Assembly: GCA_019058365.1 (NCBI GenBank)
Contig: JAHPZE010000018.1
Span: 17,801 to 81,800 of the forward strand
Direction: 5' to 3'
Length of the DNA: 64,000 bases
From: Promethearchaeota archaeon
Lineage (GTDB): Archaea; Asgardarchaeota; Lokiarchaeia; Sigyniarchaeales; SOKP01
Every line of letters starts with the position of its first letter. Position 1 is the first letter of the stretch. The notes below the pieces were generated by a model. That model did no database searches and had not been told where the DNA came from. It saw nothing but the letters and a program-made list of their open reading frames with translations. Made by a program: the position numbers and the translations under genes. Below, piece after piece: positions 19,971 through 63,808 of the stretch.

Positions 19971-20021
19971 TGTTTATGAAAATATATATTAATAAGATAA
20001 TTAAATGAGAGGGAATATTTT

Positions 20022-22190: not shown

Positions 22191-22204
22191 ATTATAATAA
22201 TTAG

Positions 22205-24199: not shown

Positions 24200-24202
24200 T
24201 CG

Positions 24203-26101: not shown

Positions 26102-26141
26102 CTCATTTTAAATTTGTTGTGACTTTATGGATCCTATATAA

Positions 26142-28037: not shown

Positions 28038-28060
28038 TATTATAACCTGATTAATTCGTA

Positions 28061-32122: not shown

Positions 32123-32344
32123 GATTTGCTATAATTTTTACCTGCTTTTGATTGAATTATTATCTTTGCCAGATATAAATATTGTGGTGAAATTCCATAA
32201 ATTTTTATTGTATTGAACTAATCTCTACGACAAAAATAATACTTCATTGTTATTATTAACTATTATTACTTTATTGATAATTGTATATTTAAAAACCAAC
32301 TAAAATTAAGTATATATAAAAGAAAAAAAAAAGGGGGGAAATTA

Positions 32345-32977: not shown

Positions 32978-33113
32978 GAAATATCTCAGATATCAATTAG
33001 CCTTTTACAACTTTTATTTTATTAGAATGTAACTATGGACCAATAGCTGCAATAATTGACAGATTTAATGAATAACTTTAAGAACTTTCAATTTATACCC
33101 TTCAGAATATCTC

Positions 33114-36696: not shown

Positions 36697-36711
36697 TTCG
36701 TGAAATAACCG
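36697..36711 (+). repeat. Recombination-site-like half site, type A (arm on left)
   Basis: TTCGTGAAA-TAACCG, intergenic. Confidence 0.85.
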
Positions 36712-36837
36712 CATTAATCATAAAAGATTTTTACTTATATAATCAGAATCTTTATACATTTTTGTAATATCCTTTATTGAAGTCCCCTTTCCCCATGAAT
36801 TAAAGTTTATATTGAATACTTTTTTTAATAACAAGGT

Positions 36838-37857
36838 ATGCTTTTATTATCAATTCTATTTCTTATATTAGGATTTTTTGGGTTATATTTTGGTGCTAAG
36901 TTTGTCATAATTAGCCTTGAAAATATTGCAGATCGCTTAAATATTAGTCATATAATGGTAGGGCTAACAATTTTATCGATTGGGACTAGCTTACCTGAAA
37001 TTGCTGTTAGCATAATGGGGGGTATTGATAAGATTTTGGGTATTGATCCTTACATTGATGGAATAGTTATAGGAAATAAAGTTGGTTCTTTTTTGACTCA
37101 AATCACTTTAATTATTGGAATTTTAGCAGTAAGCCAACCGATTTTCGTTAGTAAATGGGAATTGAGAAGAGAAGGACCTATGCTTTTTATTTCTATATTG
37201 ATTTTTCTTTTTTTCTCTTTGGATGGAATTCTTACTCAATTTGAGGCACTCCTAATGATAATAATATATCTTATTTATCTAATTTTTGTAATTTGGAGTG
37301 AGAAACGTTTACAAAAAATTAAAGTAGATTCTAATTATATTGAAAAAGAACGTTTAGATGCTGTAAGTTTTGAACCAGTTAAGAGTCCTCGTAAAAAATC
37401 ATCAACACTTAGAGATATAGGTATTTTTCTTTTTGGTCTTAGTATATTAATAATTGCAGCAGAGTCCACATTACTTTCAGCGCATGATCTATCAAGAGAA
37501 TTTCACATTCCTGAAAATGTAATTGGTATATTAATTGTTGGATTTGGCACAAGTTTACCGGAACTTGTTGCTGACTTAACCGCTATTAGGAGAGGATCAT
37601 TCGGAATCGCAGTAGGGGATATATTAGGTTCCAATATATGTGATATCTTATTAGCCACAGGATCAGGCGCAATTCTAATTAATTTTAATGTTCCCCTGAT
37701 AATTCTGGTTTTTGATATGCCCGTTCTATTATTGGCGTTAATTTTACTTATTTATTTCTTATGGAGTAAGAAAATACTTAAAAGATGGGAAGGAGCTTTA
37801 TTAATCGGATTTTATGGCGTTTATGCAATTTTAAAATTAGTAATGTTTCAAATTTAA
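36838..37857 (+). CDS. Ca2+/Na+ antiporter (CaCA, YrbG-like)
   Basis: Two GTSLPE alpha-repeats, GNKVGS/GDILGSN, ~10 TM segments. Confidence 0.92.
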   Translation: MLLLSILFLILGFFGLYFGAKFVIISLENIADRLNISHIMVGLTILSIGTSLPEIAVSIMGGIDKILGIDPYIDGIVIGNKVGSFLTQITLIIGILAVSQPIFVSKWELRREGPMLFISILIFLFFSLDGILTQFEALLMIIIYLIYLIFVIWSEKRLQKIKVDSNYIEKERLDAVSFEPVKSPRKKSSTLRDIGIFLFGLSILIIAAESTLLSAHDLSREFHIPENVIGILIVGFGTSLPELVADLTAIRRGSFGIAVGDILGSNICDILLATGSGAILINFNVPLIILVFDMPVLLLALILLIYFLWSKKILKRWEGALLIGFYGVYAILKLVMFQI

Positions 37858-37963
37858 TCAACACCATTTTTTTTTAACGATATAAGAAAAAGATCAAAAA
37901 AGTTAAGGCAATTATTCCTCATTTTCATCAATTTCTTTGTTAGCTTCTTAAATTAAAAAATTG

Positions 37964-37978
37964 TTCGTGAAACGGTTA
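37964..37978 (+). repeat. Half site, type B (arm on left)
   Basis: TTCGTGAAA-CGGTTA, intergenic. Confidence 0.85.
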
Positions 37979-38166
37979 TAAACTAAAAAGCTAATCTTAA
38001 AGGATTTGACTATTGTGTTAAAAATCCTTATTTTTTTAAATTGATTTTAAGACTTCCGATAAATGTTGATAAATCAAAATTTAATTGGAGTAAAAATTAA
38101 TTAACATCTCTCTTTATAAAAGACTTAAATGAAACGTTTTTTATTTGTGAAAAAAGAGTAACAATT

Positions 38167-38829
38167 ATGCAAAATAAAGAATTGGATAAGATATCAAATA
38201 AACCGAATATCAACGCAACAAGGTTAGGAGTATCATCACTCGGAAGCCTCGGGGGATTGATTAGTATCGAGCATGGCATTTTTGAGACGGCTCAGGGGAA
38301 TACCCCCACATCTGGAATAATAATAAATGCAATAGCTCCAGGACATTGGTATTGGAAAGAAGGAGGAGAACTTGCTATGACAATTATTCCGAATTTTTTA
38401 ATTACCGGAATAGTTGCTATAATCATTGGTATTATCGTAATAATTTGGTCAATTAGATTTGTACAAGAAAGATATGGAGCGCTGGGGTTGTTTACTCTTA
38501 CCGTATTAACCTTATTATTCGGAGGAGGGATTGCTTTTTTTATTATTGGGATTATAATCTCTATTATTGCATTACAAATCAATAAATCTCATACATGGTG
38601 GGATATTCATCTTTCAAATAATGTAAAGAAGTATTGTACCAAATTTTGGCTTCCTTTATTTAGCATTACAATTATAATACTTGTATTTTTAGTTTTAGGA
38701 GGGATGTTAGGTGTATGGTTCTTAGAGCCAAATATTGCTACAATTTTACTGACCAATGTTGGCTTAATATCAATTGGACTAATTATCTTTACAATCATCT
38801 TTGGTTTTATACATGATATTAAGAAATAA
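38167..38829 (+). CDS. Multi-pass membrane protein of unknown function
   Basis: 220 aa, ~6 hydrophobic segments, EHGIFETAQGN motif. Confidence 0.75.
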   Translation: MQNKELDKISNKPNINATRLGVSSLGSLGGLISIEHGIFETAQGNTPTSGIIINAIAPGHWYWKEGGELAMTIIPNFLITGIVAIIIGIIVIIWSIRFVQERYGALGLFTLTVLTLLFGGGIAFFIIGIIISIIALQINKSHTWWDIHLSNNVKKYCTKFWLPLFSITIIILVFLVLGGMLGVWFLEPNIATILLTNVGLISIGLIIFTIIFGFIHDIKK

Positions 38830-38856
38830 ATCCAAAATTTAATTTTATTAAATTAT

Positions 38857-38871
38857 ATCGTAAAATAACCG
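38857..38871 (+). repeat. Half site, type A (arm on left)
   Basis: ATCGTAAAA-TAACCG, intergenic. Confidence 0.8.
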
Positions 38872-39009
38872 AATAATATAATTCAATTATTAAAAACTTA
38901 ACTTGAATCTACATTTTATTTATTAATTTTAATTGATAATAATTCTTTAAGGAGCTTGAATTTATTACCCTAATAATTTATGTGAATATTGAAAAATTAG
39001 AAAATAAGA

Positions 39010-39315
39010 ATGAATATAATGAAGAAAAATAAAGATGAAATTCTCAATACGCTTAAAAATATAAAAAATGATATTAATCAAAGATTTCGAGTAAAAACAA
39101 TTGGATTATTTGGTTCTTTTGTTAATAATAGGCAAAAAAATACAAGTGATATTGATTTTTTAGTAGAGTTTGAAGAGGATGCAGATCTATTTCATCTTAT
39201 TGGCCTTTCACATTATTTAGAAGAGATTTTTCACACAAGAGTGGATGTTATTTCGAAACCAACTCTAAAAGAAGATTTAAAACAGCATATCCTTCAAGAG
39301 GTTATATATGAATAA
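39010..39315 (+). CDS. Minimal nucleotidyltransferase (MNT) antitoxin
   Basis: IGLFGSFV...SDIDFLVEF...VDVIS. Confidence 0.9.
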   Translation: MNIMKKNKDEILNTLKNIKNDINQRFRVKTIGLFGSFVNNRQKNTSDIDFLVEFEEDADLFHLIGLSHYLEEIFHTRVDVISKPTLKEDLKQHILQEVIYE

Positions 39316-39646
39316 AAATTTACCTATCTATTTGAAAGATATAAAGACAGCTATTATTAGTATCGAAAAATTTATTGAAGGATTGGATTTTGAACAATTT
39401 AAATTAGATGATAAAACTTCAAGTGCCGTAATTCGTAAATTTGAAATTATTGGAGAAGCTACAAAAAATGTTCCTGATGCTATTAGAAAGCAATATCCTC
39501 AAATTCCGTGGAAAGATATCACGGGAATGCGAGATAAGTTGATTCATGCTTATTCTGAAGTTGATTTAAAATTGGTTTGGACAACAATCCATCAAAGATT
39601 ACCAAATCTTAAATCTATTATTGAAAAGTTGATTGAAAAAGGATAA
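39308..39646 (+). CDS. HEPN/DUF86 toxin (HepT-like)
   Basis: SAVIRKFEIIGEA...IPWKDITGMRDKLIHAY; overlaps the MNT gene. Confidence 0.92.
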   Translation: MNKNLPIYLKDIKTAIISIEKFIEGLDFEQFKLDDKTSSAVIRKFEIIGEATKNVPDAIRKQYPQIPWKDITGMRDKLIHAYSEVDLKLVWTTIHQRLPNLKSIIEKLIEKG

Positions 39647-39721
39647 ATAGTGTATTCTCAAATTTCTAAAATATTTTATGTTTAAGGGATATTATTGAGA
39701 TGTATTCCAATATTATGTTTA

Positions 39722-39736
39722 TTCGCGAAACGGTTA
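39722..39736 (+). repeat. Half site, type B (arm on left)
   Basis: TTCGCGAAA-CGGTTA, intergenic. Confidence 0.8.
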
Positions 39737-39951
39737 TTGCCCAAAAAAGTATAAAATTCATACTATTCTTGAAATCATGTATGGAAAAGGAAATTCAGAG
39801 CTTGTAAGAAACAATTTAATGTTGATATCCTTTAAAATAATTGGTACTTTGTTCATTCTCACTTCTTTTAATCCTAATATTTGAAAGTCGATTTTAACTT
39901 AATATTTACACTTTAGTTAAATATATATTATTTAAATTTTTTGTTATTTTC

Positions 39952-48819: not shown

Positions 48820-50532
48820 TTAAGGATTAATTAATCTTTCACATTCTGATTTCCATTCTAAAAGCATTTTTTTTGAAATTCCTCTAATACCTTCAGCTAG
48901 AACACCTAAACTTGCCTCTTTTAGGTTAGCAATCGTAATAATACCTTTATTTTTTAAATGTCCTAATCTAGCTTTTCCTAATCCGGGTATATTCAATGAA
49001 CTAAGTTCTGTAATTTCATTAACTTCTTCAATTTCTTCTCCCTCTTCTGATATTTCGCCTTCTTCAAAAATTAACTCAGGAGGTTGAAATTTTATCCAAT
49101 CAATTGAGTAATGTTCAAGTATTTGTTTAGTACTGTCTGTTGGGTCATAAGGGGATATAAAAAAGTAATAATTATCTGGATGATTATATACCGTTGTTTC
49201 CTTAATGTTATTTAACCAGCCTGAAAATTTCTCTACTTCTCCTTTTAATGATTTTCTCTGAGTTGTTTTTATTTCTCCGAGAGCACATTTTCTAATTATT
49301 GTTCTATGCCTTGTTTCAGCATACACATCAAGATTATATCCTTCAATGGGTGTAGGTTCTTCAGCAATAAATGTAAAACCGTTATCTATAAGTTTTGGTT
49401 TAATAAACTCTCGCCCCTCTTTCTCATATATTTGGCGCTTTTCTGAAGGTGTTAAATCAAGAAGACCTAGCTTTCTATAAACTTTCTTTATATATTTTCC
49501 AAATTCTCTTGGATTATTACGCTCAATCCAATAAGTAAGTCTTGATTTAGTTTCAGTTTCAAATTTTTTAGTTTCTTCAGGGGTTAAATTTGTAATTTCA
49601 GCACACAATTTTAATGCATCATTATGTTCTTTTTCTGTAAAATTGCAGAATATTATTTCCTTACCCTTCATTCTTGATACAAAACCAGGACTATATCTTT
49701 CAAGAAAAGTATATTTACTGTCACGAGACATTGGACTTTTTAAGAGAAATGATAAAATAAAAAATAATCTTGCATCCTTAGAAGATCGCATATATCGATC
49801 ATAAGTCGAGGATACAAAAGACTCTAAAAACGCTTGAAATACAGGGGCTCCCCATTTTTCAATTTGTTGTACTTCATCAATCGCAATTATTGTTAAAATC
49901 TTATTCTCCATTAAAATATCTATAATGCCATTAAAAAATGCTTGGATATTAGAAATTCTTTGGAAATCTTCTCCATAGAAATATTCTTCAGAAGTATCTT
50001 GCCTAAAATTTCTTACATTCTTAGCTATTGTTGAATTTTTAAAAATTTTTCTGAGATTTCGTATATCATAATCTTCTATAATTTTGAGAATATCTTCTCT
50101 CTTTGATAATGAGGCATAAATTTGATTAAAAATTGCTAGCCACAAACCTTCTTCTGTTTTTTCAGCTACGTGGCGTAAATCTATTTCAAAAAAGAAATTT
50201 AATCCTTGATAATAAGTATCTAAAATATTTTTAAAAAAATCTAAATGAGTTGTCTTGCCAGTTCCATTGTCACCAAGTAGGACTCTTACCTCTGGTCTAT
50301 TACTTCTAATCAATGATTGAAGATCGTTCTTGAAAATCTCAGAAATTTTTGTCTCTTTTTCTTCATTTGAATATATTCCTAGAATATTTTTAGAATTATC
50401 TCTAATTTTTTCATCATATTCTTTTATATTACCAATTATACTGCGATCTAAAAAAAACCATAATTGGGGACCTGCTCCCAGTTGATGAATCTTTTTAATG
50501 CGGTCTAATTTACCGATTTTAACTTGAACCGT
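48820..50532 (-). CDS. P-loop ATPase + PD-(D/E)XK nuclease + C-terminal HhH; probable start at an ACG codon
   Basis: GDNGTGKT, IIAIDEVQ, YNLDVYAE...GEIKT, IPGLGKAR; frame stays open upstream of 50313 as far as an ACG at 50532 preceded by GAGGG. Confidence 0.7.
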   Translation of the reverse strand, partial: TVQVKIGKLDRIKKIHQLGAGPQLWFFLDRSIIGNIKEYDEKIRDNSKNILGIYSNEEKETKISEIFKNDLQSLIRSNRPEVRVLLGDNGTGKTTHLDFFKNILDTYYQGLNFFFEIDLRHVAEKTEEGLWLAIFNQIYASLSKREDILKIIEDYDIRNLRKIFKNSTIAKNVRNFRQDTSEEYFYGEDFQRISNIQAFFNGIIDILMENKILTIIAIDEVQQIEKWGAPVFQAFLESFVSSTYDRYMRSSKDARLFFILSFLLKSPMSRDSKYTFLERYSPGFVSRMKGKEIIFCNFTEKEHNDALKLCAEITNLTPEETKKFETETKSRLTYWIERNNPREFGKYIKKVYRKLGLLDLTPSEKRQIYEKEGREFIKPKLIDNGFTFIAEEPTPIEGYNLDVYAETRHRTIIRKCALGEIKTTQRKSLKGEVEKFSGWLNNIKETTVYNHPDNYYFFISPYDPTDSTKQILEHYSIDWIKFQPPELIFEEGEISEEGEEIEEVNEITELSSLNIPGLGKARLGHLKNKGIITIANLKEASLGVLAEGIRGISKKMLLEWKSECERLINP

Positions 50533-50683
50533 TTTTTATTCCCTCGATATATTGGATTCCCTGCAAGTATTTTTGTTTTGGTATAAAATTATAACTACTT
50601 ATTCTTTAGTGAGTGTTTATTTTTTTGATTAACTGATTAACACTTATTTTAGGTCCTTTTTTAATATTACTTAGAATTAATAA

Positions 50684-51730
50684 ATGTTAGATATTCCAAG
50701 ATTAGCATCAATGACATTTATCCCACAGAGATTGTTTTTAGAAATCACAACGGAATGTAATTTAAGGTGTAAATTATGTAATTTATGGAAACAGAAAGAT
50801 CCACATAATAAATTAAATCTAAGATCTAAACTCAATTTTTTACAAAAATTTTTTTATTGGATCGATAATTTAAATGAAGCGAATCGAAAATCTCTCAATG
50901 TTATATTGACTGGAGGAGAACCCTTTCTTTATCCCAACCAAATTTTTAAATTAGCTCATTTATGCAAAGAGAATGGTGTTAATTGTTATGTTAACACGAA
51001 TGGTTCTTTAATTAAAGATAAAATAGAAACAATTCTAAATTCTGGGTTAAAAGCATTAACGTTTTCAATTGATTCTCATATTAATAAGATTCATGATAAT
51101 TTAAGAGGTAGATTAGGATTATTTCAATACTTAATTGAAGTTTTAAAAGAATTAGAATCCAAAAAGAAAGAAAATGGGTATCCAATAGAAATCTGTATTC
51201 AATCTATTCTTGGTGAATGGAATATAGATTCTTTGTCAACTCATATTAATTTTTTTAAAAATTTAGGATTAGATGGGATAATGTTTCAACCAGTCCAATA
51301 TCCATTTGGACTTTTAATTCCAAAAAACTGGTATATTACATTTGATAAATTTCCTCACTCAACGGGAAAAACTCAAAATGCAATGCGTTATCTACTGAAA
51401 GAAAAGGAAAATACTGGCTTTATTATGAACTCTAAAGAAGAAATTGAGTTATGGAACTATTACTTTGAAAATCCCGAATATTTACCAAAATCTATTAATC
51501 CCTGTAAAAGTTGGGAACAGAATTTAATAATAGATGTGTCTGGTAATGTGAAATTCTGTTTCAATAGGGAATTAAATCCAAAAAATCTGATTGGAAACAT
51601 CCTAAAAACTTCGATAGATGATCTTTGGAATGGAAAAATGGCTTTACAAGTTAAAGAAAGCATGCGATATTGTAATCGAGCATGTGGAGTAATGGCATGT
51701 CATATTGATACAAATTTAAAGAGTAAATAA
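50684..51730 (+). CDS. Radical SAM protein with SPASM/twitch-type C-terminus
   Basis: CNLRCKLC, LTGGEP, NTNGS, FSIDS; C-terminal PC...GNVKFC...CNRACGVMAC. Confidence 0.9.
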   Translation: MLDIPRLASMTFIPQRLFLEITTECNLRCKLCNLWKQKDPHNKLNLRSKLNFLQKFFYWIDNLNEANRKSLNVILTGGEPFLYPNQIFKLAHLCKENGVNCYVNTNGSLIKDKIETILNSGLKALTFSIDSHINKIHDNLRGRLGLFQYLIEVLKELESKKKENGYPIEICIQSILGEWNIDSLSTHINFFKNLGLDGIMFQPVQYPFGLLIPKNWYITFDKFPHSTGKTQNAMRYLLKEKENTGFIMNSKEEIELWNYYFENPEYLPKSINPCKSWEQNLIIDVSGNVKFCFNRELNPKNLIGNILKTSIDDLWNGKMALQVKESMRYCNRACGVMACHIDTNLKSK

Positions 51731-51734
51731 GATA

Positions 51735-52454
51735 ATGATAGAAAAAGTTCCCGTATCAGTCGTTGTCCCCACTTATAATCGGATTTTCAAATTATTTAGA
51801 TTATTAAAAAGTCTGGATAAATTAAATCCATTTCCAGATGAAATAATAATTGTTGATGATAATTCAAAAGATAAAACCGAGGAATTACTTATTAGATGGA
51901 AAAAAATCAAAAGAAATTATGAGAAAAAAGTAATATTGAAATCATCAAATAAAGGTCCTGCTGATTCAAGAAACCTTGGGCTTCTAAAATCTAAGAATAA
52001 ATTAGTGGCGTTTACTGACGATGATGTTATTGTTGATAAGAATTGGGTTAGATTTATCACTCCTAAGCTTTTGAATAGTGATAAAAATTTGGTTGGAGTT
52101 GGAGGAACTGTTAAATCATTGAAATCTGACTTATTAAGTTTATATTACACGGAACATAAGATTCTTGAAGCGCCAAAGCACCTAAATTATTTACCAACTG
52201 TCAATTGTTGCTTTAAAAGAAAGCCATTAATAAGTCTGGGTGGCTTTGATATTACTTTTTCTTTTGCTGGAGGAGAAGATACCGATTTATGTTTAAGATT
52301 AAGAAGAGCAGGATATCATTTTTTGAAAGAGAAAAAAGCTGTAGTATACCATGATTTTTCAAGTAATTTTTTAGATTTCTGTAAGATGTGGATAAGATAT
52401 GGAAAAGGAACTCAACTTGCATTAATGAATTCGAAGAGGAAGGATAATGACTAA
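51735..52454 (+). CDS. Glycosyltransferase family 2
   Basis: SVVVPTYNR, IIVDDNSKD, GPADSRNLG, FTDDD, GGEDTDL. Confidence 0.92.
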   Translation: MIEKVPVSVVVPTYNRIFKLFRLLKSLDKLNPFPDEIIIVDDNSKDKTEELLIRWKKIKRNYEKKVILKSSNKGPADSRNLGLLKSKNKLVAFTDDDVIVDKNWVRFITPKLLNSDKNLVGVGGTVKSLKSDLLSLYYTEHKILEAPKHLNYLPTVNCCFKRKPLISLGGFDITFSFAGGEDTDLCLRLRRAGYHFLKEKKAVVYHDFSSNFLDFCKMWIRYGKGTQLALMNSKRKDND

Positions 52455-52719
52455 ATCTTATATTATAAACAACTCAATTAATAAAAATTTTTATAATAAT
52501 TGGGATGAAGGAATTATTGCCCCAAAATTTAACTTAAAGAGTCTTATTGACGAATTACATTACTATTCAAGGATTTATATCTTGCAGAGAAAATCATTTT
52601 TAATAACAATAAAATTTCTATTTTTAAATGCAATTCAAAGAATATTTTATACACTTGGGACCTTTCTAACTTCACACTCAACTAAGATTAATAAAAACAT
52701 CAACAGTGAAATGGTCTGA
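52447..52719 (+). CDS. Small hypothetical protein (possibly the detached C-terminal part of the GT2)
   Basis: 90 aa, overlaps the GT2 stop, GGAAGGA upstream. Confidence 0.45.
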   Translation: MTKSYIINNSINKNFYNNWDEGIIAPKFNLKSLIDELHYYSRIYILQRKSFLITIKFLFLNAIQRIFYTLGTFLTSHSTKINKNINSEMV

Positions 52720-54477
52720 ACCAGTTAGAGCATGTGCAGTATCTCCCGTAGTGGAGTTGATAATATTGGACGAAAAAAATTGATTAACATAAATAAAATC
52801 AATACGCGAATCATAACTTGGATAACTTATACCCCAATCAGTAGGATTCAAAGCTCGATGAGCATCAGTCCAGCTATGAATAATAGATGAATATGAACTA
52901 TAATCACCCCCGGTATCCGGATTATAATAAGGGGGGATTATCATACTTAGAGGTCCATAACCAAGCCCCCTCTGAAGAGTATTCAGACTCCAATCCTCAG
53001 GAGAAAAGGAGTTTAAATCTCCCAAATAGACTATAGGTAAATTTCCTAAATTATCCATATAATTGATAATACCTTCTTGTTCCCATTCTCTTCTTTGTTC
53101 ATTAACCGCTCCAGACATGGCCTTTAAATGGGAACCAATAACATGCATTAATGTACCACTTACATTTACTTCTACATCAAAAAAATCATGAGTAACATCA
53201 TAACTAGTACTATTATCGAGTAGAACGTGAGTAATCTGATTATAGCTAATAATCGGATAACGGCTCATAATTGCCGCTCCATCAGTAGAATACGATATCC
53301 CTTGAGTACAATAACCAATATAAGGATCTTCATTTGTGAAATAGGTGTTGAATTCACTTACATATTGATTTAATTTTGCATTGCTATTATCATCCCAATA
53401 TCCTGTTTCTAAGAACATGATTATATCAGCGTTCTCTTCTTTTACAACATTTTTCCAATCTGGGTAAGTTAGGGCTTCTCCACTCTCTTTTATATTAAAT
53501 GTCATCAGTTTGAAGATTTCAGAAGGCTCAGGAATAATAACTGAATTATTTACTATCACGGATATTGTATCAGATCCGTTATTTCCAGAGGGATCGATAG
53601 CTTCACAGAGAATGGTATAAAGACCATCAATTTCTTGAGTTGTATTCCAAGAATAGAACTGTGTGGCTGATTTAAAAATGCTATCAACATAAATTGCGTA
53701 GGAACTGATTCCATAGGCATCAGTAGCATCCATAGTAATTGTTACTGTACCTGACACAGTCGAATTAGCCATAGGAGAAATAATAGTAACAATTGGTGGA
53801 GTAGTATCTGGTTCTCCAGTATTATTAGTAATTACAGATATTATATCTGAACCAGTATTATCAAAAGGATCGGTTACCTCACAGAGAATTGAGTGAAAAC
53901 CATCACTTTCTTGTGTTGTATCCCAAGAATAGGATTTTGTACCTGATCTGAAAGCACCATCAATATAAATTGCATAAGAACTGATTCCATTTGCATCAGT
54001 AGCGTCCATATTGATTGTTATATTACCTGAAACAGTCGAACTCGCAGTAGGAGTAGTTATAGTAACACTTGGTGACGTAGTATCTGTTCCTCCGCCATTA
54101 TCAACAAACACAGTAATTTCATCATCCCCCCAAACAGTTTTGTCTTTAGCTCTGCATAAAATAGAATGCGAACCATCAACCTCTAGTGTAGTATCCCATG
54201 TGTAGGAAAAGGAGGAGGTTTGTACTATTACATCATCAATTAAAACCTGTCTTTCAGTTATAATCCATTGTCGGTCAATTGCAGTAAAATTAATTTGAAT
54301 TGTTCCAGAAATACTCTCACCTTGAATTGGATTGTTAATATTAACATTTGGTGGAATATTATCTGGAGTATTTACTATAATATGTAAAATAACGATTGAA
54401 ATCGTATTTAATATCATTAAACTCGTAATAAATGCCAAAAATTTCTTATTTTTACTTAATCGCATTTTCATTGTCAT
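52678..54477 (-). CDS. Membrane-anchored EEP (endonuclease/exonuclease/phosphatase) with three Ig-like repeats
   Basis: N-terminal TM helix; three DxxPPxVxIxxP...YSWDTT...DGxHxI repeats; MTFNI, GDLNS, RIDFIYV, SDH. Confidence 0.88.
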   Translation of the reverse strand: MTMKMRLSKNKKFLAFITSLMILNTISIVILHIIVNTPDNIPPNVNINNPIQGESISGTIQINFTAIDRQWIITERQVLIDDVIVQTSSFSYTWDTTLEVDGSHSILCRAKDKTVWGDDEITVFVDNGGGTDTTSPSVTITTPTASSTVSGNITINMDATDANGISSYAIYIDGAFRSGTKSYSWDTTQESDGFHSILCEVTDPFDNTGSDIISVITNNTGEPDTTPPIVTIISPMANSTVSGTVTITMDATDAYGISSYAIYVDSIFKSATQFYSWNTTQEIDGLYTILCEAIDPSGNNGSDTISVIVNNSVIIPEPSEIFKLMTFNIKESGEALTYPDWKNVVKEENADIIMFLETGYWDDNSNAKLNQYVSEFNTYFTNEDPYIGYCTQGISYSTDGAAIMSRYPIISYNQITHVLLDNSTSYDVTHDFFDVEVNVSGTLMHVIGSHLKAMSGAVNEQRREWEQEGIINYMDNLGNLPIVYLGDLNSFSPEDWSLNTLQRGLGYGPLSMIIPPYYNPDTGGDYSSYSSIIHSWTDAHRALNPTDWGISYPSYDSRIDFIYVNQFFSSNIINSTTGDTAHALTGSDHFTVDVFINLS

Positions 54478-54628
54478 TATTGCTGGATTAATATAGTAAT
54501 AATTGATAACTTCAGGATATATTATTTTTTTAAGATTTGTCCAAATAAATTAATATACGAGGTTTAATAAATATCATTTCCAATTTGAAGCAAGATAGAA
54601 TTATTTTTATTAAAGGATAAATAAAATT

Positions 54629-54643
54629 CGCTTATTTCACGTA
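54629..54643 (-). repeat. Half site, type A, degenerate (arm on right)
   Basis: CGCTTA-TTTCACGTA preceded by taaaatt, as at 44668. Confidence 0.7.
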
Positions 54644-54762
54644 TCTCTGCAAAAACTTATCTAACAATTATTACCTAATTTATAAGTAACCATTTTAAAG
54701 TTCGGGAATTAAGAACTCTATTATTTTATAAAACACATGCTATTTTTACTAATTAAAAATTG

Positions 54763-54777
54763 TAACCGTTTCAAGAA
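54763..54777 (-). repeat. Half site, type B (arm on right)
   Basis: TAACCG-TTTCAAGAA. Confidence 0.8.
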
Positions 54778-54945
54778 CTTTTATATATATTCAAATAATA
54801 CCAGAATAATTTTTTATATTCTACGAGTATTTTATGAACATTCAGTTATTAGGGAGACTGATTTGCTTTAAATTATTTGATTAAATTTATATCTTAAGCA
54901 TAGTCAAAACATCAAATTTTTCTTTATAAAAAACAATTATATAAA

Positions 54946-55524
54946 TTGAAGGGAGTCAAAATGAACAATAAAAAAATTAATTTAGGAGATTTATTATTTA
55001 TCCTGTTTTACAAATATGGCGGAGAAATTAGAGGAATAACTACATTACAGAAATTAATAGATATTGTTAGATTGGATAGTGATCTAGAAGTTGATGTAGA
55101 CTATTCTCCATATGAGTTTGGCGATTTCTCACCGCAAACTAATGATGTAATTCAAGTTTTTATTGATAACTCTTGGATTAATAAAGATAAATTAAAGTTA
55201 GAAGATAATAAATTTATAGAAGTCTATAAATTAACTGAAAAAGGCTGGAAGATTGCTGAGACTATTTATCTAAACTTATTAAGTACTGAACTAGAGAAAT
55301 TAAGTGTAATAGATAAATTTAAAGATAAAACACAAGAAGAAATAATCACATATTCATATTTTTGGTATCCATTGACTGCTATGAACTCTAAAATTAAAGA
55401 TAGAATTTTTAAAAGGAGTAAAATCTCTATATTTTTATCTGGAGAGTTAGAAGATGAATATAATAGCATAAAGTCTTCTGGAGAATCAATTAAAAAGGTA
55501 ATATACGAGTCTTGGAAGTGTTAA
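54946..55524 (+). CDS. YwgA/DUF4065-like wHTH protein (putative antitoxin)
   Basis: IRGITTLQKLI...YSPYEFGDFSP...YKLTEKG; ATG at 54961 is a likely start. Confidence 0.65.
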   Translation: MKGVKMNNKKINLGDLLFILFYKYGGEIRGITTLQKLIDIVRLDSDLEVDVDYSPYEFGDFSPQTNDVIQVFIDNSWINKDKLKLEDNKFIEVYKLTEKGWKIAETIYLNLLSTELEKLSVIDKFKDKTQEEIITYSYFWYPLTAMNSKIKDRIFKRSKISIFLSGELEDEYNSIKSSGESIKKVIYESWKC

Positions 55525-55598
55525 ATTATAGATCGACTTAAAATTACATTTCGACTTAGTTCCAATTGATATCTTAATATCTAAATGGTAAAAATAAA

Positions 55599-56159
55599 AT
55601 GGCTTTAATGTTTATAGATTCGGATATTTTATTTAGTTTTTTTGCGATAAACCAAGAGAAATTCAAAAGGTTTGAAAAAAATAAGACAACAGGAGATAAA
55701 GATTTAGATATTATTTTAACTCTGATTCAAGAAATCGAGCTCAACAATCATCTAATTTGTATATCTGAATTTTCCATATTGGAACTGGTTTGTTTATTAA
55801 AAAGAAGGAGTAGTGCACATAAAATTTCACAAATTATTACTAAAATATATAAAATATGTGATGTGCTACCCTTTAATGACCAAATGATAAAGTTAGCATG
55901 GTATTTAGGCTCAAATTTTAAATTACATTCTGGTGATGCAATTCACATTTCTTTTTCATTATTTCATGATTTAGATTATTTAATCGTAAAAGATAAAGAA
56001 TTTTTTGATTCATTATCTGAAATTCAAAATGATTTTAACAAGAATGGTTCAAAAAATCTTATTAATTATTTTAGTTCAATTAAATTTGCATTAGGTGTAC
56101 CCAAAATTATCATTGAGAAATATACCAATTTAAGCAAGTTAGAAATTAAATTAATTTGA
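55599..56159 (+). CDS. PIN-domain protein
   Basis: MFIDSDIL...SILEL...GDAIH...VKDKEF. Confidence 0.75.
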   Translation: MALMFIDSDILFSFFAINQEKFKRFEKNKTTGDKDLDIILTLIQEIELNNHLICISEFSILELVCLLKRRSSAHKISQIITKIYKICDVLPFNDQMIKLAWYLGSNFKLHSGDAIHISFSLFHDLDYLIVKDKEFFDSLSEIQNDFNKNGSKNLINYFSSIKFALGVPKIIIEKYTNLSKLEIKLI

Positions 56160-56560
56160 GAAAGATTATGATAAAAGAAAAAACAATGCATAAATACATA
56201 GAGAATTATTTTAAAGAATATAAATTCAAACATGAAGTAAAATTTTTTAAAAAAAAGATAGATTTTGTATTTCTTGATAATAATGAGAGACTTCATGCTA
56301 TTGAATTAAAGGTAAGAGATTGGAAAAATGCCTTATCTCAAATTGATACTAATCAATTATTTGCAAATTATTGCTATTTAGGTATTTGGCATTCATATTC
56401 GGGACAAGTAAAAGAAAAACTATTAAAAAAATATGGGATTGGTTTTCTTTCAATTAGTAAAAATAATGTTGAAATTCTTTTAAAACCGAAAAAATCTCCC
56501 ATACTAAATGAGAATTACTTGAAATTAATTAAAAAAGAAATTAAAGAGTGTTATGAATGA
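56156..56560 (+). CDS. Small PD-(D/E)XK nuclease
   Basis: HEV...KIDFVF...AIELKVRDWKNALSQ...FANYCY...YGIGF. Confidence 0.72.
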   Translation: MRKIMIKEKTMHKYIENYFKEYKFKHEVKFFKKKIDFVFLDNNERLHAIELKVRDWKNALSQIDTNQLFANYCYLGIWHSYSGQVKEKLLKKYGIGFLSISKNNVEILLKPKKSPILNENYLKLIKKEIKECYE

Positions 56561-57729
56561 ATTATTTTTTTAAATATTTTATTCAATTTTCCAATTTCTT
56601 TAACAATATTCTACAACCTAAGAGTAATGTATACTTTCAGGGAAGTTATTTATTCAATTATAAGGAAACTTGTTATAATCTTATCATGAAAAAAAAATTT
56701 AAATTTTTTATTGATCCTGAGACTTATAAGTTTCAATTTGGTGGAAAAAAACTTTTCTATACCAAATATTTGACTTACTTCGAAGAGATTAGAGAATTTT
56801 TCAACCAAAATTACCAATTGAAATTTAATTTATTAGATAATTCAAATAATTTTAATGATCTTTATAAAATTGTAATAAGATTTCAGAAAAAAACATTAGC
56901 CTATAGCAATATTCCTTTAGATTATTATATCTCGATTCTTAATGAAGAAAGTCCAGAAATCTCTTTTAATCCAATAGAGAATATTTCATTTATAATCGCA
57001 CCATATTTTGAATTCTCAAAAATTGATGATCCATACTATATTCACACTTTAAATTATTCGAAAATTAAATATGATAATTATGTTTTGTTGAGATTTCATA
57101 AAAATTTATTGAGCAATTCAGATAATATAAAAAGTATTTATAAAGATTTCAATAACAATTCAGGTATCATATTAAATGTAATAGAATTAGATCAATATAA
57201 TAAAAAGGATCTATTACAATACTTTCCGAATCTTATTGATTTAATACATCTTTTTTCTATAAATAATCAAAATGTAATTTTAATAAATAATTCTGAATTA
57301 GGGAAATATTTTAAGTATTTTGGGTTAAATTGTGTATGTTCAAATGTAATGATTGGACAAAGAACAAGACTATTCGATCCTTTTGAAACTGAGAGGAAAG
57401 GCGGTAGTACAAATCTTGTTTATATACCTCAAATTGAACGAAGTGTTTCATTTACAAAAGGAGAGACTTTATTGGCAAGAAATCCAAAACTCGCAAAAAA
57501 CTCTCTAAAAAATATATCTAAGTCAAGCTTAGATGATAGATTGAAATTCTATTATCAAAATCTTCAAAAAAAAGTTTCAAATGTTAATCAGTTGAGTTTT
57601 ACATCAATAAAAAGAGAAATTATTAAATCTTTCGACAAAATTTCAAAGCCAATACATAAAAATCGTTATGATTATGTTTTAAAATGGATTGAGCTTCTTG
57701 AAGATAAATTTAATGAATATTTTTCATAA
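56557..57729 (+). CDS. Hypothetical protein, possibly TIM-barrel (beta-protein-like)
   Basis: 390 aa; FFIDPETYKFQ and IIAPYF motifs; 4-nt overlap with the nuclease gene. Confidence 0.5.
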   Translation: MNYFFKYFIQFSNFFNNILQPKSNVYFQGSYLFNYKETCYNLIMKKKFKFFIDPETYKFQFGGKKLFYTKYLTYFEEIREFFNQNYQLKFNLLDNSNNFNDLYKIVIRFQKKTLAYSNIPLDYYISILNEESPEISFNPIENISFIIAPYFEFSKIDDPYYIHTLNYSKIKYDNYVLLRFHKNLLSNSDNIKSIYKDFNNNSGIILNVIELDQYNKKDLLQYFPNLIDLIHLFSINNQNVILINNSELGKYFKYFGLNCVCSNVMIGQRTRLFDPFETERKGGSTNLVYIPQIERSVSFTKGETLLARNPKLAKNSLKNISKSSLDDRLKFYYQNLQKKVSNVNQLSFTSIKREIIKSFDKISKPIHKNRYDYVLKWIELLEDKFNEYFS

Positions 57730-57816
57730 AAGTAATTTTTCATTTTTATCTTTTAAAGGTTGATACACTAAGATTTCTTTTTTAGAAATATTTTTTCAGT
57801 TTTAGATATCAACCTT

Positions 57817-57831
57817 CGGTTATTTCACGAA
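57817..57831 (-). repeat. Half site, type A (arm on right)
   Basis: CGGTTA-TTTCACGAA. Confidence 0.85.
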
Positions 57832-57953
57832 TCAATGTCTAAGCATTCCGTTCTCACAGATATAAAGTTAAGATATTTGAGAATGAATAACTAATCTCGA
57901 AAAAGGATACTTTAATTAGTTAAAAATAGCTACAATAGAAGTTATAAGACCTA

Positions 57954-57968
57954 TAACCGTTTCACAAA
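57954..57968 (-). repeat. Half site, type B (arm on right)
   Basis: TAACCG-TTTCACAAA. Confidence 0.8.
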
Positions 57969-58039
57969 CAAACATATTATATCGGAATAGATTCTGGTAC
58001 CAATGAAGATAATTGTTTATATTGTTCAAATATATCCAT

Positions 58040-58175
58040 AATTTATTACTCATATATGACCTCTTCAAGGGTTTGTTTTCTTAAATCTTCCTTTAGACTT
58101 GGTTTTGAAATAACATCCACTTTAGCTTTAAAAATCTCTTCTAAATAATATGAAAGACCAATAAAATGGAGATAA
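58040..58175 (-). pseudogene. Relic of the MNT antitoxin 3' half (paralog of 39185-39320)
   Basis: Reverse strand reads HFIGLSYYLEEIFKAKVDVISKPSLKEDLRKQTLEEVIYE*, matching the MNT C-terminus. Confidence 0.85.
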
Positions 58176-58208
58176 ATATTCTTCTATTAGTTATTCATTT
58201 TTAATATT

Positions 58209-58223
58209 CGGTTTTTTCATGAA
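58209..58223 (-). repeat. Half site, type A, degenerate (arm on right)
   Basis: CGGTTT-TTTCATGAA. Confidence 0.65.
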
Positions 58224-58497
58224 TGCTGATGCTGAGTTCCAATCAGTTGAACAGTTTTTGATTGAATGTTCATTAAATTTATTAGGAAAGATAGAAGATT
58301 ATCGTAATGATTTGGAAAAATGTAAATTATTATTAAAAACAAGTTTAAAGAAAAATAGTTAATAATTAGATTAATTCACTTATAAAGACTTTCTATAACG
58401 ACTTAGACCTTCTCTGTCCATTTATAAAAAATTACCTAAATCTAAATATAATATCATGAATTTATAAATCAAAATATAAAATAATGCTAAGTCCAAG

Positions 58498-61308
58498 ATG
58501 ATTGAAGCACATGATAAATCCATCGAAGAATTATACAAAATTTTAAATATAAATAAAGAAGGATTATCTTCTCTGGAAGCTGAACAACGATTAGAGATAT
58601 ATGGGAAAAATGAATTAGCTACCGGTAAAAAAGTAAATCCATTTATTATCTTTTTTAATCAGTTCAGAGATTTATTAGTACTTATTTTAATTGTAGCAGG
58701 TGTGATTACAGCTGTTTTAGGAATTATTGAAAGAGATGAAAGTATTATTATTGAAGTTATCGCCATAACTATCGTGATCTTTTTAAATGCTGGACTTGGT
58801 TTTTATCAAGAATTTTCCGCTGAAAAAGCTATTGAAGCTCTTCAATCCTTAGCAACAAGCGAGATTATTGTCCTACGTGATAATGAAAAAAAAAAAATGA
58901 AAGCAGAATATCTAGTACCAGGTGATATAGTATTTTTAGAAGCCGGAAATGTCATTCCTGCTGATATACGACTGATAAAAAGCTATGAAATCAATGTAAG
59001 TGAGGCAATTTTAACAGGAGAATCACTATCAGTAAGAAAAAGTGTTACGATTTTACCTCAAGGCACTCCTTTAGCTGAAAGAAAGAATATGCTATATAAA
59101 GGAACTACAACTACAAATGGTTCTGGAAAAGGATTAGTAACATCCACAGGGGTTAATACTGAATTAGGTAAAATCTCCACTTCTCTATCTGAAATTGAAA
59201 GGGAAGACACACCTATTCAAAAAAAGCTGAGACTGTTAGCTAAACAATTAACTCTTTTTATAATTATCATAGCAAGTGTTATTTTCCTCATTCAAATAAT
59301 AGTTATCGGTCCAGAAGAATTTTCAGAATTGTTTATTTTTGCTATAGGACTAGCCGTTGCAGCTGTGCCCGAAGGACTTCCTGCGGTTATGACACTCTCA
59401 TTAGCAATAGGAATAACTCGAATGGCACAAAAAAATGCTCTTATACGAAAGCTTCCAGCAGTGGAAGTACTTGGTTCCAGTACTGTAATCTCAACTGATA
59501 AAACCGGTACTTTAACTAAAAATGAAATGACTGTCCAACTTGTTTGGACTATAAATCATCAATATAGTGTTACAGGAATTGGATATACAAACACCGGGAA
59601 TATCATGAAGGTTGAAACTGCTAAGCAAATTACCCCTGATTATAAACCAGAATTAGAATCTCTAATAGAAATTGGAACACTTGCAAATGAAGCGAGTATA
59701 GAATTCCAAGGTGAAGGAAAGCCCTATAAAACATTTGGGGATCCAACAGAAATAGCATTATTGATTTTAGCAGAAAAAGGACAAAACGTTGAGGTTATTA
59801 AAGATAACTGGGATATCGACTATGTATTTCCATTTGATAGTGATCGAAAAAGAATGAGTGCTATAGTGAAAAATAAAATCACAGGTCATTATAGAATTAT
59901 GGTAAAGGGTGCCCTTGACATTATGATTGATCGATGTATATCTTATTTAGAAAATGGTATAAATGTTGAATTAACTCCAGAAAGGAAAGAAAAAATTATC
60001 AAGATCTCCGAACGTTTTTCTGCAAATTTTGCTTATCGTATATTAGGATTTGCTTTAAGAGACATTACTTCTGAAGAAGCGGAGCGACTACTAAATGAGA
60101 AAGAAAGTCAGTTAGTTGAAGTTAATCTTACATTTGTAGGGTTTGTAGGAATGATCGATCCTCCTAGAGAAACATCCCACCCAGCTGTATTAAAAGCAAA
60201 AGAAGCAGGTATTAAAGTAAAAATGATAACCGGAGATCATAAGGAGACAGCTAAAGCAATTGGAAAGGAGATTGGAATTTGTGGAACAATGGAACCTATT
60301 ACGGGAACTATGCTTGAACAAATGTCAGATGAGGACTTAGAGAAAGTGATTGAGGATGTTGAGATCTTCGCTAGAGTAGATCCTTCTCATAAATTACGTA
60401 TAATAAATGCATTAAAAAAAAATGATGAGATTGTAATCATGACAGGTGATGGTGTAAATGACGCTCCCGCTCTCAAGAGGGCAGATATTGGCGTTGCTAT
60501 GGGGATTACTGGAACAGATGTAGCTAAAGAAGCTAGTGATATGATATTAGTTGATGATAATTTCGCAAATATCATCGAAGCTGTAAGTGAAGGAAGAAGG
60601 ATCTATGATAATATAAAAAAGTTCATTACGTATTTATTATCTGCAAATATTGGTGAAGTATTTACAGTATTAGCTATTGTGATACTAGGACTTTTATTTT
60701 TCGGCCATATATTTCTCCCGCTCCTAGCGATCCAATTATTATATATAAACTTAGTTACTGATACATTTCCTGCTCTTGCTTTAGGTGTCAGTGCTCCCGA
60801 AGGAGATTTAATGCAAAGAAACCCAAGAGATCCAAAAGAACCATTATTAACAAAAAATTTAGTAATCTTTATAATGCTATTTGGAATCTTGAATGCTTTA
60901 GGGTGCGTTTATTTATTTCTATGGAGTATTGATTTCAATTTAGCGATAAATATTATAACCATGGACTTAACACGACAAAGAACCATCATTTTTGCCGCAT
61001 TAGTTATATATCAAACAATAGAATGCCTTAGTGTCAGTACAAACACCCATATTTTTTCAAAAAAAACTTTTGAGAATAAAGTGTTAATTGGTGCTATATT
61101 ACTGGGGATTTTCTTACTTCTTTTTGCAATATATACTCCATTTTTACAGATTTTTATCAAAACTTATCCTCTTGAACCGATAGATTGGCTAATGATTTTG
61201 ATTACTACTATTATGATCCTCATCTTCACAGAATTATATGAAAAACTAGTATTTAATCGCGAAACCAATGATTTGCTGAACCACATCGAAAAAAAGAAAA
61301 ATTGCTAA
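58498..61308 (+). CDS. P-type ATPase, type IIA (Ca2+-transporting)
   Basis: [52 protein letters not shown]. Confidence 0.95.
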
Positions 61309-61881
61309 AAAATAATAAAATAATGTTTATTTACTTATCCTAATCTTTAATTAGAAGAACAAGTCAATTAATACTTTATTTTTTATTTCTATTATATCAA
61401 AACATATATTAAGTCTTAAAAAAATAAAAGGCATCCTTAATAGATAATGGTCCGAACAAGTACTTATTAGCAAGATCTAGAGTAAACATATTAGTTACTC
61501 TCTTTAAAATTGCTGTTAATACATGGGAAACACCTATGTTATAATTCTATACAAGTCCGGAGGCATGTAGCTGTTCCCAGAATTAAAGTTAGAAATGGAA
61601 GACTTATATTTAAAAATTTATTATTGGTCTTTCTTAACATATCATGTATATGTCAGAAGTTTAATTATTTGCTTATAATTATTCTAAATTATTTTGATAA
61701 GTTATACATAATAGCTTATCCTGATCAAGATTATTATAATACTAAATTTTACCGCTTTCTACTTGTAAAGGTAATAGATTACTATACTTTAATCAAACAT
61801 TACAATAATTTACTAAAATTAAAATAATCTCTTATTATACTTATTGTAATCATATATTTGGTATGAATATTTAAAGGATAT

Positions 61882-61896
61882 TAACCGTTTCACGAA
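61882..61896 (-). repeat. Half site, type B (arm on right)
   Basis: TAACCG-TTTCACGAA. Confidence 0.85.
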
Positions 61897-61931
61897 GATA
61901 AATATTAGAGTGACAAAATTGAAGTTATTAT

Positions 61932-62363
61932 TTATGTAATATTGTATGATTCTATATCTAATCCAAATTGCTGGAAATGTCTTTTATTTCGAGTTATAAT
62001 TTTATCAGCATTCATCATTTTAGCTGTTGTACCTATTATACAATCTGCTAAATCAAGAATAATTCCTTGAGCCCTTAATTTTCCTTTAATATCTCCAGAT
62101 TCTTGGAGAATTTGAATATTGAGGGGCATAATATGAAACCCAGATAACACTTTTTCAATTTGATCCTTAATTTTCTTATAAATAGTTTCACCCTTCTTTT
62201 CTTTTGTATATCCTAATCCATCATATATTTCAGCAATAGAAATAATAGAAATACATAAAATCTCCTCTTTATATTTTTTTAAATGTATTTTTACTCCTGA
62301 TCTACCACGCCAGATATCAATTATGACTGTTGTATCAACAATAATCATAACTATTCTCCCCAT
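61932..62363 (-). CDS. vapC: VapC PIN-domain toxin
   Basis: IIVDTTVIID...SIAEI...LADCIIG...ITRNKRHF. Confidence 0.9.
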   Translation of the reverse strand: MGRIVMIIVDTTVIIDIWRGRSGVKIHLKKYKEEILCISIISIAEIYDGLGYTKEKKGETIYKKIKDQIEKVLSGFHIMPLNIQILQESGDIKGKLRAQGIILDLADCIIGTTAKMMNADKIITRNKRHFQQFGLDIESYNIT

Positions 62364-62617
62364 AATTCAGAAAATTTGGATATCGATTTCATTGCGTCAT
62401 TTTTTTTTGCTTCGATGATAGCTTTTTCAAATTCGTCTGCTAACTCAGATGAGAGATCTTTGGCAATACCAAAAAATTTCAAAGGATCTTTCTGCTGATT
62501 TGCAATCAACCGTTCTATTAATTCAGAAAAGCTCTCATTAGGGCTCTTTAGCTTTTTCAAATTTTTATAAACATCATCACGAATAGAAATCATTTTTGAA
62601 GTCATATAATCAATCAT
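62351..62617 (-). CDS. vapB: VapB-type antitoxin (archaeal DUF217/RHH-like)
   Basis: KMISIRDDVYKNLKKLKSPNESFSELIERL directly upstream of vapC. Confidence 0.85.
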   Translation of the reverse strand: MIDYMTSKMISIRDDVYKNLKKLKSPNESFSELIERLIANQQKDPLKFFGIAKDLSSELADEFEKAIIEAKKNDAMKSISKFSELWGE

Positions 62618-62763
62618 TTAATGACTAAATATTTATATAAATATTTATATCATAAGAGTTAATAAATTTTTTTATTTAATAAAGAAATATTGATATCTTT
62701 ATATCACCATTTATTTCATAATGTCAATCTAAACATTTCTTCTTTTTAATAAAATTAAAATTC

Positions 62764-62973
62764 ATGACTCAAGAATATCGATTGAAAGAGAGTAGTGAGA
62801 AATATCGGAAGTGATTAGTAAGCATGGCAGAAGCGGCTACCTTAGCAAATGTATCAATTTATAAAATGATGGAATATGTTGAACGTGAAAAGATTCAATC
62901 CCCTTCTTTAACTGATCCTGAAATGGAAGAGGATTTGAGGCGATCTAAAAAGCTATTTGAAGAAATTAAGTAA
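62764..62973 (+). pseudogene. UPF0175-like antitoxin remnant
   Basis: ...EKYRK*LVSMAEAATLANVSIYKMMEYV...EMEEDL; one in-frame TGA; no partner toxin follows. Confidence 0.6.
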
Positions 62974-63106
62974 TGAAGTAATTAAGTGCAGGAAGGGTCT
63001 CTTTTTATGGATAATTACTTGAATTCATATTAGAAAATTGCTATTTAAGAAGAATTAAATATCGTTTAAAGAGTAAATAAAAACTCTTAAATTTATTTTA
63101 AGACTT

Positions 63107-63121
63107 TAACCGTTTCTCGAA
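63107..63121 (-). repeat. Half site, type B (arm on right)
   Basis: TAACCG-TTTCTCGAA. Confidence 0.8.
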
Positions 63122-63364: not shown

Positions 63365-63571
63365 ATGAATGAAATAATATTCCTTATTGAAGAATCTTTA
63401 GAAGGAGGTTATGAAGCAAGAGCCTTAGAAACCTCTATCCATACCGAAGCTGAAAACCTTACTGAATTAAAGGATTCTATTAGAGATGCTGTAAAATGTC
63501 ATTTTGATGAGGAAGAAAGACCCCATATAATACGATTACATTTTGTAAAAGAAGAGGTTATAACTTTATGA
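63365..63571 (+). CDS. HicB-like antitoxin
   Basis: EESLEGGYEARAL..SIHTEAENLTELKDSIRDAVKCHF, immediately upstream of a HicA remnant. Confidence 0.8.
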   Translation: MNEIIFLIEESLEGGYEARALETSIHTEAENLTELKDSIRDAVKCHFDEEERPHIIRLHFVKEEVITL

Positions 63572-63808
63572 AAATCCCGTGTAATTAGCGGGAAGAAACT
63601 ATCCAAATAACTAAAAAGATTTGGATTTGAAATCACAAGGAAGACGGGGAGTCATATGAGATTAACTACAACAATTAAAGGTGAATTTCATATTACTATT
63701 CCAAATCATAAGAGCTTGAAAGTAGGTACAATTAATAATATATTATCGGATATTGCAAAATACCTCGCAAGAGATAAGAATGATCTTATAAAGGTATTAT
63801 TCGGATAA
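63568..63808 (+). pseudogene. hicA: HicA toxin pseudogene
   Basis: MKIP/frameshift/ISGKKLSK*LKRFGFEITRKTGSHMRL...ITIPNHKSLKVGTINNILSDIA; one frameshift and one TAA. Confidence 0.8.

Follow-up and report, generated by a model that had tools for sequence, protein, structure and literature searches.

What are the short repeats that punctuate the genes between positions 36697 and 63121 of a 64,000-nucleotide stretch of Promethearchaeota archaeon DNA (contig JAHPZE010000018.1, positions 17,801 to 81,800; this whole stretch is hereafter the window), and which enzyme acts on them? A preliminary description, made from the sequence alone, had read them as recombination half-sites dividing the region into an integron-like platform for defence and toxin-antitoxin (TA) genes, driven in trans. 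We find that the repeats very probably form a real, site-specific cassette array that extends across the archaeal family to which the window belongs, and sequence comparison leads us to favor a chromosomal cassette platform centered on one dif-like complete site, here called F, on which the homomeric housekeeping recombinase XerA would act in trans. The source genome, G000, is an assembly of 4.74 Mb in 54 contigs, with the window on contig C41; labels in G, C and L denote the genomes, contigs and loci of the comparison.

Each half-site consists of a 9-bp arm and a 6-bp core, forward in A sites and reversed in B sites. Arm and core are present at all 15 positions first listed, and all window sites are intergenic when checked against the list of open reading frames (ORFs), although only seven have exact arms. 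At up to two mismatches, the A and B 15-mers have eight matches each in the window, compared with 0.10 and 0.08 expected from shuffles (16 matches against about 0.2 overall), all of them confined to 36697-63121, and the claim that the first 36.6 kb are free of sites is borne out, with no such match before position 36697. The genome-wide check suggested at the outset gave a clustered rather than dispersed motif, as a matrix scan of G000 returned 28 matches on C41 and C11 together and, from the remaining 4.6 Mb, six isolated ones. The end of the window is also the end of C41, and the array is not finished there; contig C11 carries 14 further co-oriented half-sites and many TA modules (17459-34401, locus L002) and is probably the continuation of the same array, with no overlap found when the ends of the two contigs were compared. 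The near-perfect alternation of A and B cores first described holds for most of the window and fails at 46642/54629 (both A, across an 8-kb interval missing from the modules first listed) and at 61882/63107 (both B). Near 62760, where a collapsed A site had been suspected, no arm and core remain; however, a vapB relic at 44462-44667 aligns to 62543-62760 and then runs on into an intact A site, which supports the former presence of a site there.

The array pivots on F, the single complete site, in which two inverted 9-bp arms enclose an asymmetric 6-bp core (42319-42342, correcting an initial placement at 42318-42343). To its left, four half-sites lie on the plus strand, and to its right ten lie on the minus strand, each with its conserved arm on the side facing away from F, an arrangement that the preliminary description did not mention. 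Among half-sites within 45 kb of F on F-bearing contigs of related Promethearchaeia, counted at a matrix score of at least 18, this outward-arm rule has no exceptions (96 half-sites on 18 contigs, 10 of them two-sided), and two matches below the score cut-off, one in G077 and one in L208, run against it. Genus g27 has the same layout. No genome contains two complete sites with the array core. When 161 genomes of the class Promethearchaeia were compared, exact B half-sites were confined to the window's family, where 38 genomes from five genera have them. Position frequencies (n=118) describe a half-site as the core with one conserved arm, the other arm being weak, and site score declines with distance from F, from 26.4 bits within 3 kb to 21.5 bits beyond 20 kb (rho -0.42, n=107). 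Genes at 6-10 kb of the window also flank the array in G077, G018, G065, G068 and G161; relative to this common flank F points one way in G000, G077, G018 and G065 and the opposite way in G068 and G161, showing that it has been flipped in some genomes.

Breakpoints between relatives coincide with the cores, as the preliminary description had proposed to check. G002 (C28) and G071 (C42) are 99.97% identical over 29.3 kb, up to a core at which G002 has F and G071 has a half-site followed by the leader of a common module; the same switch between F and a half-site is found in the pairs G027/C11, L197/L228 and G012/G065. Within G000, two VapBC copies on C41 and C11 (99.6% identity) diverge at the core of 61882, and three other species have the antiporter module of the window, enclosed by the same A and B sites and with differing neighbors. 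Homology stops with the final base of the 6-bp core. Overall, for 37 of 128 alignment ends from all arrays, which are not mutually independent, a core is no more than 16 bp away in both sequences; such positions make up 1.6% of the compared bases. Array content varies between species, and modules are common at 96-99% both between species and within one genome. These patterns show that the cores are the crossover points, where F is made or unmade.

A profile search found no recombinase within the window or near the array, in keeping with action in trans, and the candidate enzyme lies on another contig. Two tyrosine recombinase genes were found in G000: one, beside cdc6 on C7 (156988-157908, minus strand), encodes an intact XerA of 307 aa, and the other a 429-aa integrase. 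XerA passes the NCBIfam recomb_XerA_Arch cut-off (238.7 against 220 bits) with its catalytic residues intact and falls below the XerC and XerD cut-offs; both are far below the integron-integrase cut-offs. The 429-aa integrase was not found in five array genomes, and no serine resolvase was found in G000, G002, G018 or G071. XerA is the only PF00589 match in G002 (100% complete) and the only Xer-profile match in G071, G005, G012, G027 and G065, and it is the only tyrosine recombinase found in every array genome examined. The same platform could instead be served by a dedicated integrase encoded elsewhere, for which arms unlike the known archaeal dif motifs (PMC11840125) and the further tyrosine recombinases of G000, G063, G068 and G077 might speak. 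We consider this unlikely: no second recombinase family is common to the array genomes, G002 has only XerA and yet is recently rearranged relative to G071, and a profile built from the recombinases of 17 relatives finds only the two G000 genes and no third.

The intervals between sites follow a simple grammar. Across arrays (n=125), 45 run from A to B, 44 from B to A, 25 from B to B and 11 from A to A; opposite cores are thus joined in 89, and in several of the intervals between like cores a linker is present in which a site has decayed. The most frequent unit pairs a gene module (A to B) with a gene-free linker (B to A); modules bear a single strong arm, on the end that faces F, and a weak one at the opposite end. 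Units of 100-200 bp are, in 29 of 30 cases, gene-free B-to-A linkers, whose cores lie 134-140 bp apart (about 13 helical turns) across some 26 sequence families and which carry A/T tracts in helical phase (0.083, compared with 0.007 ± 0.015 in intergenic controls). A CTX-like hairpin was rejected for the linker, whose arms do not pair (3.2-3.4 of 11 positions, equal to the null; folding z about -0.7), and an RNA gene was likewise rejected, with no Rfam match in window positions 30000-64000. On the A-arm side of F the nearest site is B in 11 of 11 cases, seven of them with a linker, and on the other side it is A in 12 of 16, the pattern expected of two-site circles or inversions. Collapsed modules are represented by half-sites only 31-55 bp apart (C11:23681/23712, G077:C4:42048/42080, G002:C28:25472/25527 and G005:C131:4992/5025).

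Tyrosine recombinases carry out each strand exchange of a synapse with the two monomers that occupy equivalent arms. Under the mechanism that we propose, exchange would take place only where both partners have a strong arm on the same side, such that F would react with A or B, and A with A and B with B; A and B would not react with each other, since half-sites with one strong arm each offer no equivalent strong-arm pair in that combination. Recombination between like half-sites would excise a circle of gene module plus linker. Integration of this circle at F would add it on one side when A is used and on the opposite side when B is used, F surviving in both cases, and inversion between F and an inverted half-site would move or flip F. 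Such rules would keep a single F with all arms outward; in a simulation they did so, and allowing A to react with B multiplied F, a check of the logic that is not itself evidence. The phased linker would probably bend or wrap DNA and thereby help synapsis, and it would allow one gene module on its own to be released as a circle.

Several observations weigh against XerA acting in this way. The mechanism gives no account of how a new module first gains its arm. XerA is encoded in 49 of 54 genomes of the genus, and with so wide a distribution its presence in array genomes is weak evidence alone, and a further recombinase may have escaped these profiles or lie in unassembled sequence; the arms, moreover, lack TAA-N6-8-TTA, reported as the best-conserved motif of archaeal dif sites (PMC11840125). 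No circular cassette was found among 57 metagenome contigs chosen by their B-linker-A pattern (and left out of the count of linker directions), and 91 of the 128 alignment ends lie away from recognized cores, indicating that further processes reshape the locus. Half-site runs also occur apart from any F, at G063:C34:13166-26646 and G108:C5:29835-35369, and these may be arrays divided by a long inversion. The source run holds two joints near sites, with 20-base sides and the sequence between them unread, and these carry no weight either way. As a separate observation, both F-less runs point to one housekeeping block, the homologue of G000 C9 near 97 kb, and in G132 F lies about 11 kb from genes that neighbor this block.

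The flipped F and the one-armed sites with a fixed core also recall the R64 shufflon (Rci/sfx; PMC11852207), in which a conserved core with one conserved and one variable arm supports inversions, and in simulation inversions alone preserve the polarity rule. An array of anciently acquired modules, subject today to flipping and reordering alone and with no regular gain from outside, is nonetheless improbable given the species-specific content, the modules that are nearly identical between species and within one genome, and the decay of sites away from F. In contrast to a shufflon, the array combines a 6-bp core, left- and right-type half-sites and one symmetric site with exchange of content, and its cargo consists of whole genes in random direction (64 toward F and 66 away across arrays), with neither an adjacent invertase nor a constant gene whose variable end the modules would complete.

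The preferred reading, XerA acting at F, gains context from single complete palindromes elsewhere in the chromosome. G000 has about 10 such palindromes (both arms, 6-bp gap); their cores differ and no array lies at any of them, and inverted arms pair only at this spacing (9 cases, compared with 0-1 at other spacings). Of 116 genomes from the order, 102 have the palindrome, for which a control gave close to zero; it is also present in Hermod-, Hod-, Thor- and Odinarchaeota records, and exact copies with differing cores number up to 12 per genome. In two single-contig relatives (81-90% complete) palindromes are present and no array-core site was found; in single-contig genomes of other families they occur at chance level only. 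Single palindromes never lie inside ORFs, favor convergent gaps (24 of 68, compared with 14%) and avoid divergent ones; their cores are GC-rich (53%, against 21% beside them) and conserved at 87%, compared with 50-63% in the flanks, a figure biased by the choice of sites. Those of G000 (locus L003; C9:119905, C16:147575, C21:130893, C30:20288, C34:25478, C34:245221, C39:54307, C40:38018 and C52:17177) are orthologous across the genus, mostly just past gene ends, and are candidate multiple XerA sites. Intergenic position, convergent-gap bias and GC-rich cores fit chromosome-maintenance sites better than operators, with a precedent in the XerD-bound XDS sites of Bacillus (as cited in PMC11840125). 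The arm-core-arm architecture of Xer-dif sites proposed in the preliminary description is supported, with the caveat that the complete palindrome is multi-copy with other cores. Having considered F as the single-copy dif of the lineage, we dropped this idea in view of the roughly 10 palindromes with other cores in G000 and of the two single-contig relatives described above; F is dif-like, with dimer resolution as a possible role.

Multiple palindromes with varied cores might also be expected if the arm were the site of a transcription factor or nucleoid protein and the array a regulated gene set or the remnants of one repeat. For the array this interpretation is largely refuted and we hold it to be very improbable, as the core is fixed and occurs in two directions, the strand switches exactly at F, homology breaks at the core, gene direction is random, and the single palindromes prefer convergent to divergent gaps.

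Turning to the genes beside such sites, xerA in L004 (111-3508) lies between a thioredoxin-reductase-like gene and cdc6, and L061 has the same order with a palindrome 1.1 kb upstream of xerA; in Asgard archaea a palindrome adjoins xerA at 1 of 92 loci, which is about chance. Among roughly 15 Firmicutes loci listed, five from Clostridia metagenome-assembled genomes (L037, L085, L086, L091 and L109) have an exact palindrome 17-470 bp upstream of, and directly followed by, Xer-like genes of 330-380 aa, the layout of single-recombinase XerS/XerH modules (PMC5357621). It is possible that these are single-recombinase dif modules outside streptococci, and they lend independent, indirect support to the arm as an Xer site.

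More tentatively, and with somewhat less conviction than a coin toss would carry, Promethearchaeia may possess a distinct gene-capture system in which homomeric XerA acts on many complete chromosomal sites of different cores, as distributed dimer resolution without FtsK, one of these sites being a family-wide cassette dock, and in which the half-site grammar and a dedicated 138-bp two-site linker allow modules that carry no integrase to be excised, to move from one species to another and to insert at either side of the dock.

Among known systems, one close likeness is to the dif modules of Acinetobacter plasmids (pdif) and chromosomal dif-module islands (PMC13141974, PMC12907356), which share arm-6 bp-arm sites, modules between inverted sites, TA cargo, empty modules, linear multi-module islands, breaks of shared modules at sites, possibly gain and loss in pairs, and a host Xer acting in trans, as proposed here. 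Their sites, however, are all complete, with a XerC arm and a XerD arm alternating as C/D and D/C around variable spacers at both module ends, whereas the archaeal chromosomal array has one homomeric arm, an invariant core, one-armed half-sites around a single complete pivot, a linker of fixed length and, in G000, one XerA in place of a XerC and XerD pair. The cassette-platform reading of the preliminary description stands as regards clustering and breakpoints, and changes in that the half-sites converge on one complete site rather than alternating as in pdif modules.

Integrons and clusters of attC sites lacking integrases (CALINs), including archaeal ones (PMC9668308), resemble the array in their single insertion point, ageing away from it, cassettes shared between species and TA and defence cargo. 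The term integron-like is apt to that extent, with one F and a gradient of decay, and misleading in other respects: there is no intI, cassettes lie in either direction with their own leaders, growth occurs on two sides, and the linker shows neither an Rfam match nor folding that would suggest attC, an attC-specific model not having been run. From archaeal XerA/dif (PMC8371274, PMC11840125) and from XerS/difSL and XerH/difH (PMC5357621) the array shares inverted arms with a 6-bp spacer, intergenic position, often between convergent genes, and a homomeric Xer, here a candidate; archaeal dif, in contrast, is described as single-copy with a TAA-N-TTA motif, and here the arm is another one and occurs in up to 12 copies with different cores, one of which bears an array.

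Elements exploiting Xer recombination for integration (integrative mobile elements exploiting Xer, IMEX), such as the CTX, VGJ and TLC phages and the gonococcal island (PMC5357621), likewise pair a core and one good arm with a complete site that stays usable and build up in tandem beside it; one-arm half-sites are thus known substrates both there and in shufflons (PMC11852207). In the array, unlike IMEX, small non-autonomous modules occur on both sides, with no hairpin attP and no replicon, autonomous or satellite, in viral contigs, in plasmids or as circles. Viral or plasmid carriers were rejected, single 14-mer matches in viral contigs being at chance level. That the modules are what remains of autonomous viruses or plasmids of the IMEX type, inserted one after another at dif, is the least credible explanation of all, for although IMEX attP sites keep one arm and core and that of CTX consists of two inverted sites within about 150 nt (PMC5357621), no replication or virion family is among the top Pfam matches of 134 cargo proteins, the two-site element has no occurrence in the viral contigs and plasmids searched, and the linker forms no paired-arm stem. 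Taken together, the array works like dif modules and IMEX yet departs from a defining property of each known system compared. No description of it was found in the literature searched, most subscription papers being outside its reach, nor in the reviews consulted on archaeal recombinases and Asgard mobile elements.

If the proposed mechanism is right, the array would be the first archaeal gene-module platform driven by Xer and would give Asgard archaea a way to trade TA, defence and transport genes without mobile integrases; its half-site grammar would show how a symmetric enzyme can gain direction. The palindrome offers a concrete candidate multi-copy XerA site for Asgard archaea, bearing on chromosome-dimer resolution without FtsK in archaea, and candidates for Asgard defence genes can be read directly from the arrays. 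Leading cargo families across arrays are nucleotidyltransferase, PIN, HepT, HEPN, DUF2283, UPF0175, DUF433, TPR, LRR and AAA, and PADLOC matches include PDC-S09, PtuA and Old; the cargo first described as defence and TA genes is present, and transporters are carried as well.

In the window itself, Pfam confirms the module annotations first given, except that the winged helix-turn-helix and membrane-protein labels have no Pfam match; half-sites were assigned by motif match. To the left of F, all on the plus strand, the outermost A half-site (36697-36711) is followed by a Na/Ca exchanger module (36838-37857; 88-92% copies with different neighbors in G001, G012 and G065), a B half-site (37964-37978), a 220-aa protein with no Pfam match whose module begins with a linker-derived leader (38167-38829), an A half-site (38857-38871), an MNT and HepT TA pair (39010-39646), a B half-site (39722-39736) and an NB-ARC/TPR STAND NTPase (39952-42303), with F itself also on the plus strand. 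To its right lie, on the minus strand, an HD-domain protein with a 168-aa partner (42392-44306), the decayed copy of vapB 5' end plus leader, which ends at an A site (44462-44667), a two-site element (44668-44820; A at 44668, gene-free linker, B at 44806, 138 bp core to core), a NucS/YhcG-type PD-(D/E)xK nuclease (44986-46503) and an A half-site (46642-46656). The 8-kb interval that follows (46657-54628) has no detectable site, encodes an AAA/HhH protein, a radical SAM/SPASM protein, a GT2 protein and an Ig-like protein with an EEP nuclease, and probably consists of fused modules. Beyond it, two minus-strand two-site elements (54629-54777, A at 54629 and B at 54763, 134 bp; 57817-57968, A at 57817 and B at 57954, 137 bp) enclose a four-gene operon including a PIN protein (54946-57729, plus). 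An A half-site with two mismatches (58209-58223, minus), a cation P-type ATPase (58498-61308, plus), the B half-site at which identity to the C11 VapBC copy stops (61882-61896, minus), the VapBC pair (61932-62617, minus), the collapsed A site suggested by the relic copy (62755-62775, minus) and a last B half-site (63107-63121, minus) complete the series. A HicA toxin with an upstream 68-aa partner (63365-63808, plus) had been placed as HicBA beyond the last site; with the further sites of C11 it is still inside the array, and the contig ends at 64000.

A module homologous to that of the HD-domain protein is flanked by A and B sites, both on the plus strand, in L063. This locus belongs to G161:C1 (JANBVM010000001.1), which is labelled Patescibacteria, bears the array and has flank genes 61-81% identical to those of G000; it is probably a misbinned Promethearchaeia contig. 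Beside the array, the site-free region 9940-36611 of the window encodes an AspBHI-type restriction nuclease, a 1650-aa helicase with an MZB-domain partner, UvrD and NERD helicases, a HATPase, a C5 methylase and an SMC-like ATPase, a putative defence island whose gene content resembles a DISARM-type set.

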